A DNA stretch of 64,000 nucleotides from Candidatus Omnitrophota bacterium (GCA_021108075.1 JAIORP010000197.1:20509-84508); one strand, 5' to 3'; positions 15,869 to 40,861 are shown, numbered from the stretch's first letter. The notes: generated by a model from the letters alone, not told the origin. Translations and numbers: made by a program.

Positions 15869-17365
15869 ATGAAGCATTATGACAGCATAGTTGTGGGAAG
15901 CGGGATAAGCGGCTTAACGATCGCGCGTCTTTTGGCAATGAATGGACAAAAAGTTCTGATCATTGAGAAGGGGGGAAATATTGGTGGAAGCATGGCGCGA
16001 TTTTACAAAAATGGCGTTCCCTTCGACACAGGGTTTCATTTCACAGGCGCCTTCCTCAAAAACGGAATTCTGAACGACATGCTCATTGTCCTGGGGATAC
16101 AGGATACGATCAAACCCATCGTTCTTCCTGATGAAAACGGACAAATCTATGTCTTTGAGAATGACAACAAAAAATATTTCTTGCCCAATGGTGTTGCTAA
16201 TTTTGTCAAAGAACTGAAAAAGTATTTCCCTGAAGAGACCCGGGGTATTGACGATTTCTTTAGTCTCGCTAAAAAGATCTATAACGAAACAAGTTCTTTA
16301 GATCTCTCGAGAATTACGGAAGCGCCTCGCGTCTTAGATGAGGATGACATCAGCTTGCAGGAAATTTTAGACAAGACCATGAAAGACGGCCATTTAAAAG
16401 GCATACTATCAACGTTCAGTATGTGTTATGGCGTAAAGCCTTCCGAAGTGTCTGTCGCAAACCATTTCCGCGTTGCCTATGGAATGTATGACAGTGTGGT
16501 CCGAATTAAAAATGGTGGAAAGGCGTTCATCGATGCATTTAATGAAGACTTTATTAAACTGGGTATTGAGGTTAAAACCAACTGCACCATTGATAAATTT
16601 CTGGATATTGAGAAAAATATTATTAAAAAATTTATTTTAAGTGATGGGGAGACATTATCCTGCGACCAGTGTATTTTCACTATTCATCCCAAAGCGGTTG
16701 TTGAGAGTCTTCCCGAAGGACATTTAAGTAAAGCATTTCTAAGCCGTATCAATGATTTTGAGCCGGCCGCCGGATTCTTTACTGTTTATGGAACAATTGA
16801 ATCCGATGATCCTGATTTTGTGCCGAGTATTGTGTCAATTCTCCCGTCTCAGGACATTAATGTTTTGTTGGAGCCAACGAACAATGGATGTTCCGCGCTC
16901 GTTTTAATGACCAGTTATGAGAAAGTTCAGGGGAAAATCGTAAAAGTTTTAACAGCGATGGAACCATCTTTCACAGAACAAGTTGCTGAATGGATAGACT
17001 CAAAAGTCGGCAGACGTCCTGGATCCTACTATGCGTACAAAGAGAATAAGATTGAACAGATTAAGCAAAGGATATACCGATACAATCCAGCATACAAAGA
17101 TTCATATAAAATAATGGGAGCGGCCTCCATTCTAACATATCGAGATTACTTGAATTCCTTCGAGTGCACAGCCTATGGCATCAAACAGAAAATGGGGCAA
17201 TTTAATTTATTCGGAAAACTTCCCTTGAAAAATATTTACGCGTGTGGTCAAAGTTCCGTTCTTCCAGGTGTCGTGGGGGCGATGATGTCATCGTTTATTA
17301 TCGCGCGCAGCATTGTTGGGCGAGATGAATACGATGCATTTATAAAAACAAGGTTAAACAAATGA
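15869..17365 (+). CDS. FAD-dependent oxidoreductase, phytoene-desaturase (CrtI)/amine-oxidase-like. First gene of the lipid cluster.
   Basis: N-terminal dinucleotide-binding fold YDSIVVGSGISGLTIARLLAMNGQKVLIIEKGGNIGG. 498 aa. Confidence 0.75.
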   Translation: MKHYDSIVVGSGISGLTIARLLAMNGQKVLIIEKGGNIGGSMARFYKNGVPFDTGFHFTGAFLKNGILNDMLIVLGIQDTIKPIVLPDENGQIYVFENDNKKYFLPNGVANFVKELKKYFPEETRGIDDFFSLAKKIYNETSSLDLSRITEAPRVLDEDDISLQEILDKTMKDGHLKGILSTFSMCYGVKPSEVSVANHFRVAYGMYDSVVRIKNGGKAFIDAFNEDFIKLGIEVKTNCTIDKFLDIEKNIIKKFILSDGETLSCDQCIFTIHPKAVVESLPEGHLSKAFLSRINDFEPAAGFFTVYGTIESDDPDFVPSIVSILPSQDINVLLEPTNNGCSALVLMTSYEKVQGKIVKVLTAMEPSFTEQVAEWIDSKVGRRPGSYYAYKENKIEQIKQRIYRYNPAYKDSYKIMGAASILTYRDYLNSFECTAYGIKQKMGQFNLFGKLPLKNIYACGQSSVLPGVVGAMMSSFIIARSIVGRDEYDAFIKTRLNK

Positions 17366-18585
17366 AAAGAGTTGTCATAACGGGTATAGGCGCGGTTACG
17401 CCCTTGGGCGCTAATGTTGATGAAACCATCGCTGCAATTGAAGCGAATAAAAGTGCTGTTGTTAAAATGGAAATCTGGAAAGAATATGACGGGTTAAATA
17501 ACCTCGTCGCTGCCCCTGCCGAACTGAAAAACGAAAAAGAAATCCCACGAAAAAAAAGACGATCTATGGGACGAATGGGTATCTTTTCTGTGCAGGCAGC
17601 CCGGGAAGCTGTTGCTGATGCAGGATTAGACAGAGAAAAGGTCGGATCTGCGTGCACAGGATGTATTATTGGGTCAACAATGGGTGGTGCCGAAGCAATG
17701 AATGACACATTTGAGCTGATGCTTCCTAAAAAGGATCTTTCTGAACTGTCTTCCATGAATTTCTTTAAATGTGTTTCTCATACCGCGGCCATGAATGTTT
17801 CTCAGTATTTTGGGATCAAAGGGTGTGTGATGGCAACATCCGCCGCATGTGCTTCTTCTTTGCAGGCTATTGGCGCGGCTTATTGGCTTATTCAAATGGG
17901 CAAACAAGACATCATGCTTTGCGGTGGGGCAGAAGAATTACACGCGATTGTGGCCGGTTCCTTTGATATTCTTTTTGCCACATCGACACATTTTAATGAT
18001 CGTCCAGAATTAACCCCACGGCCTTTTGATAAAGATCGCGATGGGTTGGTTTGTGGGGAAGGGAGTGGAATTCTTATTCTTGAGGAATATGAGCATGCGA
18101 GAAATAGAAACGCTAAAATTTATGCTGAAATAGTTGGTTATCATACATGTGGGAGTGGGGAGCATGTAAGCCAATCCAATAAACAGGCAATGGTTGAATG
18201 CATAGATAATACTCTTCGCTCAGCAAATATAAGGCCGGAAGATATTGACTATATCAATGCACACGCAACAGCTACATTACACGGAGATAAGGCGGAGAGC
18301 GAAGCTCTTAAGGAAATTTTCTCAGATAAAGTACCTGTCAGCAGTATGAAAGGATATATTGGACACACGTTAGGAGCTTCAGGGGCGATTGAACTGATTG
18401 CGACATTAAAGGGATCAGAACGCGGCATAATTTATCCAACGAAGAATTTAGAAAATCCCGCGGACGACTGTAAAGGAATCCAACATGTTATGCAAAAACA
18501 AAAAAAAGAGTTAAAATATATTTTAAAAAACTGTTTTGCCTTTGGCGGCATTAACGCATCGCTTATTGCAACACGTTTTTCTTAA
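17362..18585 (+). CDS. Beta-ketoacyl-[ACP] synthase (FabF/FabB-type KAS I/II)
   Basis: Active-site Cys in TSAACASSLQAIG. Catalytic His motifs NAHATAT and GHTLGASG. ATGA overlap with upstream gene. Confidence 0.85.
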   Translation: MKRVVITGIGAVTPLGANVDETIAAIEANKSAVVKMEIWKEYDGLNNLVAAPAELKNEKEIPRKKRRSMGRMGIFSVQAAREAVADAGLDREKVGSACTGCIIGSTMGGAEAMNDTFELMLPKKDLSELSSMNFFKCVSHTAAMNVSQYFGIKGCVMATSAACASSLQAIGAAYWLIQMGKQDIMLCGGAEELHAIVAGSFDILFATSTHFNDRPELTPRPFDKDRDGLVCGEGSGILILEEYEHARNRNAKIYAEIVGYHTCGSGEHVSQSNKQAMVECIDNTLRSANIRPEDIDYINAHATATLHGDKAESEALKEIFSDKVPVSSMKGYIGHTLGASGAIELIATLKGSERGIIYPTKNLENPADDCKGIQHVMQKQKKELKYILKNCFAFGGINASLIATRFS

Positions 18586-39425: not shown

Positions 39426-40861
39426 ATATCGCAGAGACGATCGTTGGAAAAAAAAACGGTCCATTAAATAAAACCGCCATCATTGATCAGGATCAGACGA
39501 TCACATACGAAACATTGTTCAAAGAGGTCGCGTTGTTACGTGCTGAACTCTCAGCCCTGGGCGTGTCTGATTACAAAAAAGTAGCTCTTTACGCGGAGGA
39601 TAGCATTGAGTACATTATTGTCTCTCTGGCGGTTCTTTTATGTAACGGGGTTATTGTGCCGGTCTCACCTTCTCTCGCGTGGGATGAAGCACAGAATGTT
39701 ATGGACGCGATAGATGTCCATTTCTTAATAGCGGCAGAAAAGATCGGATTTCATAAAAAGCTTACGAGATTAAAAACAATCAAATGCAATCGACGAGAAA
39801 TGTCATTTTACCGGAGAGCAATTAAAAACGAGGCCCCAAAAGAGTATTACGCTCTTAATCCCGCGTTTATCCGGTTTTCATCCGGGACGACAGGCGCGAG
39901 CAAGGGGGTTGTCCTGTCTCATGATTCCATTATTGAAAGAATAGACGCGGCCAACAAAGGATTAAATATAACAGAATGTGATCATATCATTTGGGTTTTA
40001 TCCATGACGTATCATTTTGTTGTGACGATACTCCTTTTTTTACGTGAAAGAGCGACGATCATTCTTTGTGAGAAGGAATTCCCTTTTACTTTATTTGATG
40101 CACTAAAAAAATACAGCTGTACATTTCTTTATGCTTCACCTTTCCACTATCGGATGATCTCCCTGGACAAGCAGACACTTAGAGGAAAACTGTCAAATAT
40201 TCGTTTAGCAATTTCCACAGCTGTTGAGTTCAGCAAAGAAGAAATTGGTCTGTTCCATGACGCGTTTGGATGCGCGGTTAAAGAAGCATATGGAATCATC
40301 GAAGTGGGGTTGCCCTTTATAAATTTGAGCCATGATCTTAAGGCCAGGGGTTCCGTCGGAAAAATCCTACCGGATTATGACATTCAAATTTTAAATAAGG
40401 ACGACGAAGGTGTAGGGGCCATCTATTTGCGGGGAAAAGGGATGTTTGACGCGTATTATTCTCCATGGAAAATGAGAGAGAAGGTTCTGGTTGACGGGTG
40501 GTTTTATACGGGAGATATTGGATTTCTGGATGAAAATAATTATCTCTTTATTAAAGGGCGTGAAAAGAATGTCATTAATTTCTCTGGAATGAAAATCTTT
40601 CCGGCGGAGGTGGAGGCGGTATTAAATTCTCATCCAAAGGTGCGGGAGTCTTTTGTCTACGGGGTTTCGCACCCGGTCTATGGACAACTGCCACAGGCCG
40701 ATGTCATTTGGATCGACGAGTCCCGGAACAGCAATGCCCTCCCGGAATTACGCAAATTCTGTTATGATCATATGGCTTCATATAAAGTTCCAAAAAAAAT
40801 TAGTTTCGTTGATAAAATCAAAAAAACAGCAAGCGGAAAAATATCGAGATCAAACGTTTAA
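39422..40861 (+). CDS. AMP-dependent synthetase/ligase (fatty-acyl-AMP/CoA ligase type)
   Basis: Start chosen at ATG 39422 (ATGA overlap). FSSGTTGASKGVVLSH AMP-binding P-loop. YTGDIGFLD...IKGREKNVI and C-terminal K (TASGKISR). Confidence 0.8.
   Translation: MNIAETIVGKKNGPLNKTAIIDQDQTITYETLFKEVALLRAELSALGVSDYKKVALYAEDSIEYIIVSLAVLLCNGVIVPVSPSLAWDEAQNVMDAIDVHFLIAAEKIGFHKKLTRLKTIKCNRREMSFYRRAIKNEAPKEYYALNPAFIRFSSGTTGASKGVVLSHDSIIERIDAANKGLNITECDHIIWVLSMTYHFVVTILLFLRERATIILCEKEFPFTLFDALKKYSCTFLYASPFHYRMISLDKQTLRGKLSNIRLAISTAVEFSKEEIGLFHDAFGCAVKEAYGIIEVGLPFINLSHDLKARGSVGKILPDYDIQILNKDDEGVGAIYLRGKGMFDAYYSPWKMREKVLVDGWFYTGDIGFLDENNYLFIKGREKNVINFSGMKIFPAEVEAVLNSHPKVRESFVYGVSHPVYGQLPQADVIWIDESRNSNALPELRKFCYDHMASYKVPKKISFVDKIKKTASGKISRSNV

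Follow-up and report, generated by a model that had tools for sequence, protein, structure and literature searches.

What kind of lipid is made by an operon that combines a type II fatty acid synthase (FAS)/polyketide synthase (PKS)-like core with three radical S-adenosylmethionine (radical-SAM) enzymes and flavoenzymes? The question is raised by a locus in Candidatus Omnitrophota bacterium (GCA_021108075.1 JAIORP010000197.1:20509-84508), where 27 closely packed genes on the + strand span approximately 14.0-40.9 kb (~27 kb) of the 64,000-nucleotide stretch analysed here, referred to as the window. A first-pass annotation had described it as a type II FAS/PKS-like lipid cluster with the gene vocabulary of aryl polyene (Ape) clusters, extended by radical-SAM and flavin enzymes, a description that the present analysis supports. 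The operon is genuine and tightly organised, and it is judged somewhat likelier than not, with a probability of about 0.55, to represent an anaerobe-type variant of the aryl polyene (APE)/aryl polyene lipid (APEL) pathway, for which we infer the substrates, the order of steps and the product from homology and synteny.

Gene functions were assigned by Pfam and NCBIfam profile scans, together with an AlphaFold2 (AF2) model and a Foldseek search for selected proteins. The Pfam scan comprised 50 open reading frames (ORFs) across the 64-kb window, nearly all non-nested ORFs of at least 100 amino acids (aa). The functions previously given for the 25 + strand genes at 15869-40861 were all confirmed by Pfam, NCBIfam and one structure prediction. 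The genes, including ketosynthases (KS) and acyl carrier proteins (ACP), are as follows.

14058-14807, +: PagL-like outer-membrane beta-barrel (Pfam PagL 62.9 bits, OMP_b-brl); probable first gene in the Omnitrophota subgroup
14845-15573, +: 3-ketoacyl-ACP reductase, ApeQ/FlxB-like (FabG 282.9 bits, cut-off 273; FlxB 284.8, below its cut-off of 340)
15869-17365, +: CrtI/CrtISO/RetSat-family flavoenzyme, a polyene desaturase, isomerase or saturase (Pfam Amino_oxidase 69.7 bits)
17362-18585, +: KS1, ApeR-type homodimeric ketosynthase (best solved relative AbApeR 7F27, 351.7 bits)
18602-18874, +: ACP1, ApeF-like (NCBIfam NF003757 67.6 bits, cut-off 65)
18861-19613, +: PlsC-type (LPLAT) acyltransferase (Pfam Acyltransferase 82.5 bits; weak ApeD match, E 6e-7)
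19610-20908, +: PaaK/FlxY-type adenylating ligase, probably for starter-unit activation (FlxY_rubin 442 bits, cut-off 520; PaaK 148 bits)
20908-22413, +: radical-SAM/SPASM enzyme with a C-terminal ApeP-like hot-dog dehydratase domain (Radical_SAM 75.1 bits, SPASM 38 bits)
22410-23069, +: LolA-like periplasmic carrier, ApeL-like (Pfam LolA 63.5 bits; LolA2_flexi 101.6, below its cut-off of 125)
23062-25440, +: RND/MMPL-type exporter, ApeM-like (HAE3 67 bits and HpnN 62 bits, both below cut-off)
25407-26108, +: DUF3261/LolB-like protein, ApeN-like (Pfam DUF3261 33.1 bits, cut-off 22.3)
26105-26476, +: ApeI/FabZ-like hot-dog dehydratase (Pfam FabA E 1.6e-4 and ApeI-like E 2.7e-4, both below cut-off)
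26490-26966, +: YbgC/4HBT thioesterase, ApeK-like (Pfam 4HBT_2 61.9 bits)
26960-28096, +: KS2, catalytic ketosynthase (Pfam KS N- and C-terminal domains; triad; 32% identity to ApeO over 251 aa)
28117-28785, +: u222 (222 aa), half-size KS-like, chain-length-factor-like partner of KS2 (no Pfam or NCBIfam match)
28782-30023, +: B12a, class-B (B12-binding) radical-SAM enzyme of an unnamed family (weak Pfam and NCBIfam matches)
30031-31404, +: B12b, "lipid biosynthesis B12-binding/radical SAM protein" (TIGR04072), TsrM-like fold (624.3 bits, cut-off 360)
31391-32584, +: GT2 glycosyltransferase with a DUF2062 membrane domain (Glycos_transf_2 77.7 bits, DUF2062 44.5 bits)
32535-33473, +: LpxL-family acyltransferase, start codon uncertain (Pfam Lip_A_acyltrans 47.2 bits)
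33494-33781, +: ACP2, ApeE-like (starter-type) carrier (NCBIfam NF006617 72.2 bits, cut-off 70)
33782-34951, +: KS3, ApeO-like catalytic ketosynthase (triad; full-length ApeO match)
34953-35984, +: KS4, non-catalytic, chain-length-factor-like partner of KS3 (Pfam KS N-terminal domain alone)
36000-36590, +: u196 (196 aa), secreted accessory protein (signal-peptide-like hydrophobic N-terminus; in 15 of 36 loci)
36682-36942, +: ACP3 (Pfam PP-binding 41.6 bits; no E. coli Ape counterpart by BLASTP)
36920-38230, +: stand-alone condensation-domain-fold acyltransferase (436 aa; no Pfam match; AF2 and Foldseek)
38223-39425, +: FAD-dependent oxidoreductase, PF12831 (Pfam FAD_oxidored 239.8 bits; no NCBIfam equivalog)
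39422-40861, +: FadD/MenE-type acyl-AMP/CoA ligase, probably loading ACP3 (AMP-binding 173 bits, AMP-binding_C 62.6 bits)

Comparison of the window proteins by BLASTP with those of the E. coli CFT073 ape locus has revealed extensive homology. KS1 shares 44% identity with ApeR (E 1e-114), the FabG-type reductase 42% with ApeQ (E 2e-59), KS3 33% with ApeO over its full length (E 6e-60), the thioesterase 38% with ApeK (E 5e-25), ACP1 38% with ApeF (E 4e-16) and ACP2 35% with ApeE. ApeJ is represented by two separate proteins, with the GT2 enzyme matching its N-terminal half (33% over 233 aa, E 9e-32) and the LpxL-like enzyme its C-terminal, acyltransferase half (25% over 295 aa, E 2e-16), while ApeP corresponds to the C-terminal domain of the radical-SAM/SPASM protein. 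Weak matches were detected for ApeD (E 6e-7), ApeI (E 1.7e-4), ApeL and ApeM (22% over 541 aa, E 1e-8), and ApeN is recognised via Pfam DUF3261 only. For the dehydratase at 26105-26476, the Pfam ApeI-like domain is on record for its orthologues in three further loci (L081-L083, introduced below). By BLASTP and pairwise comparison with E. coli CFT073, no homologue of ApeA, ApeB (a SAM methyltransferase), ApeC, ApeG or ApeH was detectable; the PaaK/FlxY-type ligase was considered as an ApeH orthologue and rejected, as it shares a generic adenylation motif only (BLASTP E 0.023). The core ape genes defined by Grammbitter et al. comprise KS (apeO, apeR), ACP (apeE, apeF), the chain-length factor (CLF; apeC), dehydratases (apeI, apeP), a ketoreductase (apeQ) and a transporter (apeM). 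Every one of these categories has a counterpart in the window, with KS4 and u222 in the CLF role. The lipid-anchoring and export set, ApeD, J, K, L, M and N, is likewise represented, clearly for K and the split J, weakly for D, L and M, and by Pfam for N.

The same arrangement is widely distributed. A scan with a B12b alignment against one genome per GTDB species gave 196 loci, and the window proteins were compared by tblastn with the best 80 of these 196. By title, the best 80 of 196 include approximately 18 Omnitrophota, 23 Desulfobacterota/"Deltaproteobacteria" (among them Geobacteraceae and Pelobacteraceae), 11 Nitrospirota and 6 Planctomycetota-labelled loci, the remainder belonging to Verrucomicrobiota, Elusimicrobiota, Hydrogenedentota, Lentisphaerae and others. 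Full-length 21-kb loci number 36, and in 35 of them gene order and strand are identical: SPASM, LolA, RND, DUF3261, dehydratase, thioesterase, KS2, u222, B12a, B12b, GT2, LpxL, ACP2, KS3, KS4, (u196), ACP3, condensation domain and FAD enzyme. The presence of B12b in these loci is circular, as they were found through it. Three further loci were fetched through CrtI homologues and are independent of B12b: Candidatus Aceula meridiana (Omnitrophota; L081), a Pseudomonadota-labelled metagenome-assembled genome (MAG; L082) and a Hydrogenedentes metagenome contig (L083). They give the same picture, and the shared order and strand across phyla put the arrangement far beyond chance. The best-conserved proteins over the loci are ACP2 (67-91% identity), B12a (63-86%) and B12b (54-81%). 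The first-pass annotation had named absence of the radical-SAM genes from orthologous loci as a finding that would tell against it; instead, B12a and B12b are among the most conserved members. Its statement that similar clusters of unknown product occur in non-anammox anaerobes is borne out by the scan and by reported antiSMASH clusters. Literature searches on TIGR04072, or on a characterised product in Geobacter, Desulfovibrio or Pelobacter, returned nothing relevant and no named product.

Some variation has been detected within the family. In L082, the SPASM::ApeP-like protein (13784-14878, 364 aa) retains a weak SPASM match and has no Radical_SAM domain, while B12a is kept. ACP1-PlsC directly precedes LolA in several Desulfobacteraceae loci, the same pattern as in L082, and the radical-SAM function of the SPASM protein thus seems, judging by these proteins, to be dispensable in one sublineage. 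Two host labels are unexpected: a Bacteroidales-labelled locus (L003) has a B12b of 79% identity, as in Omnitrophota relatives, and one labelled as a Methanosarcinales archaeon (L051) has a B12b of 57% identity. Mis-binning or mislabelling seems more likely for both than true hosts.

The L081-L083 loci also bear on the extent of the operon. The first-pass annotation had placed the cluster at 15869-40861; the genes it placed there stand, and its start site does not, since the cluster opens upstream with the FabG/ApeQ-like ketoreductase (14845-15573) and the PagL-like outer-membrane protein (14058-14807). A FabG-type reductase lies immediately 5' of the CrtI-like gene in all three loci, followed by KS1, ACP, PlsC, SPASM/ApeP-like, LolA and MMPL genes, and the PagL-like gene occurs upstream of FabG in L081 alone, being absent from L082 and L083. 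Because the same upstream genes recur in these loci, the cluster start is placed at 14845, or at 14058 in the Omnitrophota subgroup. At neither cluster end did promoter and terminator scans yield more sites than shuffled sequence does, so that the boundaries rest on synteny; a TTGACT-17-TATAAT site (11/12) at 13989-14017, upstream of the PagL-like gene, is of a kind whose frequency is not above chance. It had been stated that at least ten genes overlap by ATGA, which is corrected here to strict ATGA overlaps at 6 junctions (12 genes), with approximately 14 of 24 junctions overlapping in some way. The ATG of the FadD/MenE-type ligase (39422) overlaps the upstream stop as ATGA. Within this otherwise overlapping operon, a 295-bp non-coding gap (15574-15868) separates the FabG-like and CrtI-like genes, with no Rfam match and an unremarkable promoter scan. 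An Rfam scan of the whole window for cobalamin or other riboswitches found none, its sole match being a tRNA-Pro (GGG) at 50097-50173 (+).

The first-pass annotation had reported that no ammonia-lyase gene is present, and none was found among the 50 ORFs scanned with Pfam over the window; from this it had deduced a fatty-acyl rather than an aryl starter. The deduction fails, because canonical ape clusters have no tyrosine ammonia-lyase (TAL), loading 4-hydroxybenzoate on ApeE by means of ApeH, and because the window shows several features of the aryl type. The FlxY model gives the ligase 442 bits. The best solved relative of ACP2 is the starter ACP ApeE (9LS6), with E 2.8e-11 as opposed to 4e-6 for the next match, and its F-G-E-G-L-G-L-D-S stretch reproduces the Gly-rich F-G-x-G-x-G-x-D-S motif of ApeE. 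KS1 carries F/F/F where ApeR has the proposed aryl-stacking residues F118/Y135/F202.

KS1, KS2 and KS3 have full Cys-His-His triads, and each of the three ACPs has a DSL/DSx serine motif. Of the two Cys-less KS partners previously described, both are indeed non-catalytic, and u222 does end before the Cys position, but KS4 is not literally Cys-less: both of its His residues are missing and a Cys sits at the catalytic column in the window protein, a column that is variable over 46 sequences with the window included (A10 S8 F7 C6 K5 and others). The u222 profile covers FabF residues 63-189, the N-terminal half, only (1j3n, E 4.5e-4), and its gene directly follows KS2 in 35 of the 36 loci. ApeC is a half-size CLF of a single thiolase fold, which u222 fits in size and fold type; it was also considered as a sequence homologue of E. 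coli ApeC, and hhalign shows no similarity. An "ApeC-like" label for u222 would therefore refer only to its size, half-KS fold and adjacency to a KS. PDB 9s5h is the top match of both KS2 and KS3, and no conclusion is drawn from it. Among the accessory proteins, the CrtI-like protein falls far under the cut-off of every NCBIfam carotenoid model and has 873 homologues, the best 120 of 873 at 49-74% identity; several of these lie on contigs equal in length to ones that bear a B12b gene. The AF2 model of the 436-aa protein (pLDDT 89.3, pTM 0.90) has the SrfA-C condensation domain as its top Foldseek match (E 6e-22), with condensation, epimerisation and cyclisation (C, E, Cy) domains of nonribosomal peptide synthetases at E 6e-22 to 1e-18, and the protein is accordingly modelled as a stand-alone condensation-domain fold. 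Within its HxxxDG motif, H140 is invariant and D144 nearly invariant among homologues, all of which are annotated as hypothetical. Searches with u196, whose gene separates the KS3/KS4 pair from ACP3, gave no match in Pfam, NCBIfam or PDB sequences and no ApeA similarity; 24 homologues occur among the fetched loci, and the invariant W47, H60, G153-x-P155-P156 and T160 suggest a real fold.

The feature setting this operon apart is its set of radical-SAM enzymes. All three proteins have the CxxxCxxC motif, kept in 70 of 70 B12a and 24 of 25 SPASM sequences, with the window protein included. B12b exceeds the whole-protein cut-off of TIGR04072 (624.3 bits against 360, model positions 1-442 of 443), and an identical protein, from a Candidatus Omnitrophica MAG, carries this product name in NCBI; the CrtI-like protein likewise has an identical match in such a MAG. 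Its next-best NCBIfam matches are BzaD (195 bits), the TsrM (tryptophan 2-C-methyltransferase) family (134) and BchE (74), the BzaD and TsrM scores being well under their cut-offs. The AF2 model (pLDDT 79) has TsrM 6WTE as its top Foldseek match (E 8e-27, TM 0.77-0.80), followed by MgmA (E 1e-17). TsrM and BzaD methylate aromatic sp2 carbons, and in the canonical ape pathway ApeB methylates the aryl head. As ApeB is missing here, C-methylation of the head group or the polyene would be the most parsimonious role to assign to B12b. In the SPASM protein, the 126 residues at the C-terminus share 31% identity with E. coli ApeP (E 5.5e-10), and the corresponding PF22817 domain, which reaches E 0.0048 in the window protein, is annotated in its L081-L083 orthologues. 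Its nearest named families, AhbD and NirJ, are far under their cut-offs. The fusion to a dehydratase suggests that this enzyme may act on ACP-bound intermediates. A second B12b paralogue, with 65% identity, has been observed at L052:5873-14248, in the same MAG as L002 (CAZAYU01), in a cassette that also encodes two MBOAT acyltransferases, an ACP and a radical-SAM::AMP-ligase fusion (812 aa); TIGR04072-like enzymes thus also appear to work with carrier proteins outside the ape-like cluster.

Taken together, these homologies allow a pathway to be proposed. The FlxY-type ligase would load a carboxylic acid, most likely an aromatic one such as 4-hydroxybenzoate, on the ApeE-like ACP2. The ApeR-like KS1 and the pairs KS3/KS4 and KS2/u222 would then extend the chain with malonyl units, each round being processed by the ApeQ-like reductase and the ApeI-like/ApeP-like dehydratase pair. 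Because the cluster has no enoyl reductase, the chains are expected to stay conjugated polyenes. B12b and B12a would most likely serve as C-methylating enzymes for the aryl head or the polyene, in place of the missing ApeB, and the SPASM domain tethered to the ApeP-like dehydratase may carry out an unknown radical step on an ACP-bound intermediate, with the CrtI/RetSat-like flavoenzyme adjusting the double-bond pattern. Attachment of the chains to a glyco-phospholipid anchor could fall to the PlsC-like acyltransferase and the split ApeJ (GT2 and LpxL-like), while the FadD/MenE-type ligase, ACP3, the stand-alone condensation domain and the FAD enzyme may add a further acyl group by an ester or amide bond. 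Transport of the lipid to the outer membrane would be the task of the RND/MMPL, LolA-like and DUF3261/LolB-like proteins. This product model follows the solved APEL structure, in which N-acetylgalactosamine (GalNAc)-phosphate-glycerol bears an aryl polyene together with a C26:5 conjugated and a saturated acyl chain, and the functions that have been suggested for ApeD, J, L, M and N.

The anchoring enzymes also bring lipid A into consideration, since a PagL-like outer-membrane protein and an LpxL-family acyltransferase are both present. The operon could in principle remodel lipid A or lipopolysaccharide, with the LpxL-like enzyme placing a polyketide-like chain on lipid A after PagL-like deacylation, and lipid A was considered a possible APE anchor by Johnston et al. 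Nonetheless, it is the acyltransferase half of ApeJ that the LpxL-like protein resembles, and the Xenorhabdus ApeJ has been proposed to acylate the GalNAc of a phosphoglycerolipid. The PagL-like gene is confined to the closest relatives (L081), and a PlsC-type enzyme together with GT2 fits the APEL scheme, all of which renders lipid A remodelling improbable.

Several observations weigh against the APEL pathway proposed above. KS4 and u222 stand in for the CLF, and neither detectably resembles ApeC. With TsrM, B12b shares only 21-22% identity, too little to fix its substrate or its reaction, and B12a has no characterised relative, no named family matching it well; class-B radical-SAM enzymes also perform cyclisation (BchE) and ring contraction. 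The hosts are anaerobes, in which the role proposed for APEs in protection from reactive oxygen species is less obvious, and no product is known for any member of the family. The starter ligase is under the FlxY cut-off (442 against 520 bits) and is not an ApeH orthologue; the L082 cluster also lacks it, and in L083 its gene is located upstream of the cluster, so that the starter may be a different one or be supplied from another source. In Desulfotalea psychrophila, a carrier of a similar cluster, lipid analysis reported polyunsaturated hydrocarbons and made no mention of aryl polyenes.

The last two points lend themselves to a non-aryl polyunsaturated fatty-acyl/hydrocarbon pathway ("anaerobic PUFA/PUHC", Rattray et al.), the view taken in the first-pass annotation, in which a fatty or short acyl starter, elongation with no enoyl reduction, CrtI-like desaturation and radical-SAM modification would yield an unusual aliphatic membrane lipid. 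With a ligase that is no ApeH orthologue and that some relatives do without, a non-aryl starter is a serious rival. A second, FadD-type ligase is available for it, and canonical ape enzymes also make a non-aryl fatty acid, the C26:5 conjugated one. Yet within the family conservation is highest for the ApeE-like starter ACP, the ligase present in the window is of the FlxY rather than the FadD type, and KS1 retains the aromatic pocket residues. The Desulfotalea cluster is syntenic, but its link to the hydrocarbons is putative only, and the absence of TAL is uninformative for the reason given above. On balance, a non-aryl pathway is considered doubtful, and the APEL-type pathway is preferred.

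Outside the operon, the window encodes genes of other kinds. Next downstream, at 42501-45689 (-), is a 1062-aa STAND-type protein with DUF4062, an AAA/NACHT NTPase and many TPR repeats. At 46416-49425 (+) an 827-aa protein with RelA/SpoT nucleotide-pyrophosphokinase, SLOG (LSDAT) and RyR domains is followed by a NUDIX hydrolase; from their domains, the two look like a nucleotide-signalling or defence-like pair. Upstream, 3161-12310 (+) holds two-component genes, namely three receiver-domain proteins, a hybrid kinase, a double-receiver protein and two sensor histidine kinases, each of the latter after a solute-binding protein. The G+C content is 0.32-0.35 in this signalling run as opposed to 0.38-0.46 in the cluster.

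Comparison with known systems begins with the ladderanes, whose biosynthesis is still open after 20 years. The first-pass annotation had held that this combination of genes defined the candidate ladderane clusters of anammox bacteria. The vocabulary is indeed that of Kuenenia stuttgartiensis kuste3335-3352, but the anammox-exclusive locus is a different one of six genes. The kuste3335-3352 region is syntenic with Desulfotalea psychrophila, which has no ladderanes (Rattray 2009), and radical SAM, phytoene-desaturase-like, KS, ACP, phenylacetyl-CoA-ligase-like and glycosyltransferase genes are listed for it and its Desulfotalea counterpart (Rattray 2009; Javidpour 2016). Matched by functional category only, the glycosyltransferase, phytoene-desaturase-like, FabZ, FabG, ACPs, two adjacent radical-SAM, phenylacetyl-CoA-ligase-like and FabF genes, including a non-canonical FabF, are all found in the window, and the kinds of host are the same; Kuenenia differs in having two SAM methylases (kuste3338, kuste3347) absent from the window cluster. 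By these functional categories, the window cluster appears to belong to the family common to Kuenenia and Desulfotalea in Rattray 2009. The kuste3335-3352/Desulfotalea locus is probably that of the antiSMASH "ladderane" clusters of non-anammox phyla, which have been reported without explanation from Omnitrophota, Desulfobacterota and other phyla in anoxic-habitat metagenomes. When the Kuenenia genes were expressed heterologously, new fatty acids did not appear, and no CrtI activity was seen for kuste3336. The anammox-exclusive candidate, kuste3603-3608 (amxACP, amxFabZ, FabF2, FabF(mut), PDH-like, B12 radical SAM), occurs in ladderane producers only. It likewise combines an ACP and a hot-dog dehydratase with a KS and its non-catalytic partner, a CrtI-like enzyme and a B12 radical-SAM enzyme, whereas the window cluster has ~27 genes with export and lipid-anchoring apparatus and is spread over many non-anammox phyla, without such exclusivity. 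Because the anammox-exclusive cluster is a separate six-gene locus, the "ladderane" resemblance is to the shared, non-specific one.

A ladderane or other carbocyclic lipid pathway, in which the radical-SAM enzymes cyclise an ACP-bound polyene to cyclobutane or other rings, would account for the gene vocabulary equal to that of the Kuenenia candidate loci, for the family model of B12b being named rSAM_ladder_B12 and for the antiSMASH label in the same phyla, and the SPASM-dehydratase fusion suggests radical chemistry on enoyl intermediates. It is nevertheless very improbable, given that ladderanes are known only from anammox Planctomycetota, with none found in Desulfotalea, that the host belongs to Omnitrophota, and that B12b is more methylase-like than cyclase-like in the scores given above. 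More specifically, the SPASM-dehydratase fusion together with B12a and B12b could conceivably introduce cross-links or carbocycles into an ACP-bound conjugated polyene, a long shot which, if true, would imply a new outer-membrane lipid class of anaerobes, a non-anammox sister of the ladderane pathway, and genetically tractable hosts such as Geobacter for studying ladderane-type chemistry. By its gene content, the family practically amounts to a full aryl polyene lipid pathway supplemented by three radical-SAM enzymes. Under the preferred APEL-type pathway, "ladderane" annotations in anoxic metagenomes most likely mean an outer-membrane polyene glycolipid of anaerobes rather than ladderanes. 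The family is already recognised, often under the "ladderane" label, and chemically uncharacterised; the window cluster adds one more member, a modest gain in itself, and the family is of higher interest through its three radical-SAM enzymes.

Other systems share individual components. The flexirubin clusters of Bacteroidota supply the best NCBIfam names for the ligase (FlxY), the reductase (FlxB) and the LolA-like carrier (LolA2_flexi), all below cut-off, and no match to TAL (FlxA) or to DarA/DarB-like proteins was found among the 50 ORFs scanned. Flavoaffinin of Clostridium thermocellum, an anaerobe with aryl polyenes, was considered as a relative and set aside, as its cluster encodes a type I PKS and the paper mentions no radical-SAM enzyme. 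B12b has the same domain order as TsrM and BzaD, differing in its lipid-cluster setting beside a second B12 radical-SAM enzyme. The closest parallel is with the ape clusters of E. coli CFT073, Xenorhabdus doucetiae and Acinetobacter baumannii, whose products are APELs. In common with these, the window operon has a KS with a non-catalytic partner, a dehydratase pair of the I/P type and a LolA-RND-DUF3261 export block in the same order, and neither has an enoyl reductase. It differs in the anaerobic lifestyle of its hosts, in a FlxY/PaaK-type ligase instead of ApeH, and in carrying a second KS/partner pair and the ACP3/condensation-domain/FAD/ligase module, along with a small group of additional enzymes: B12a, the TsrM-like B12b, the CrtI-like flavoenzyme and the fusion of SPASM to the ApeP-like dehydratase.

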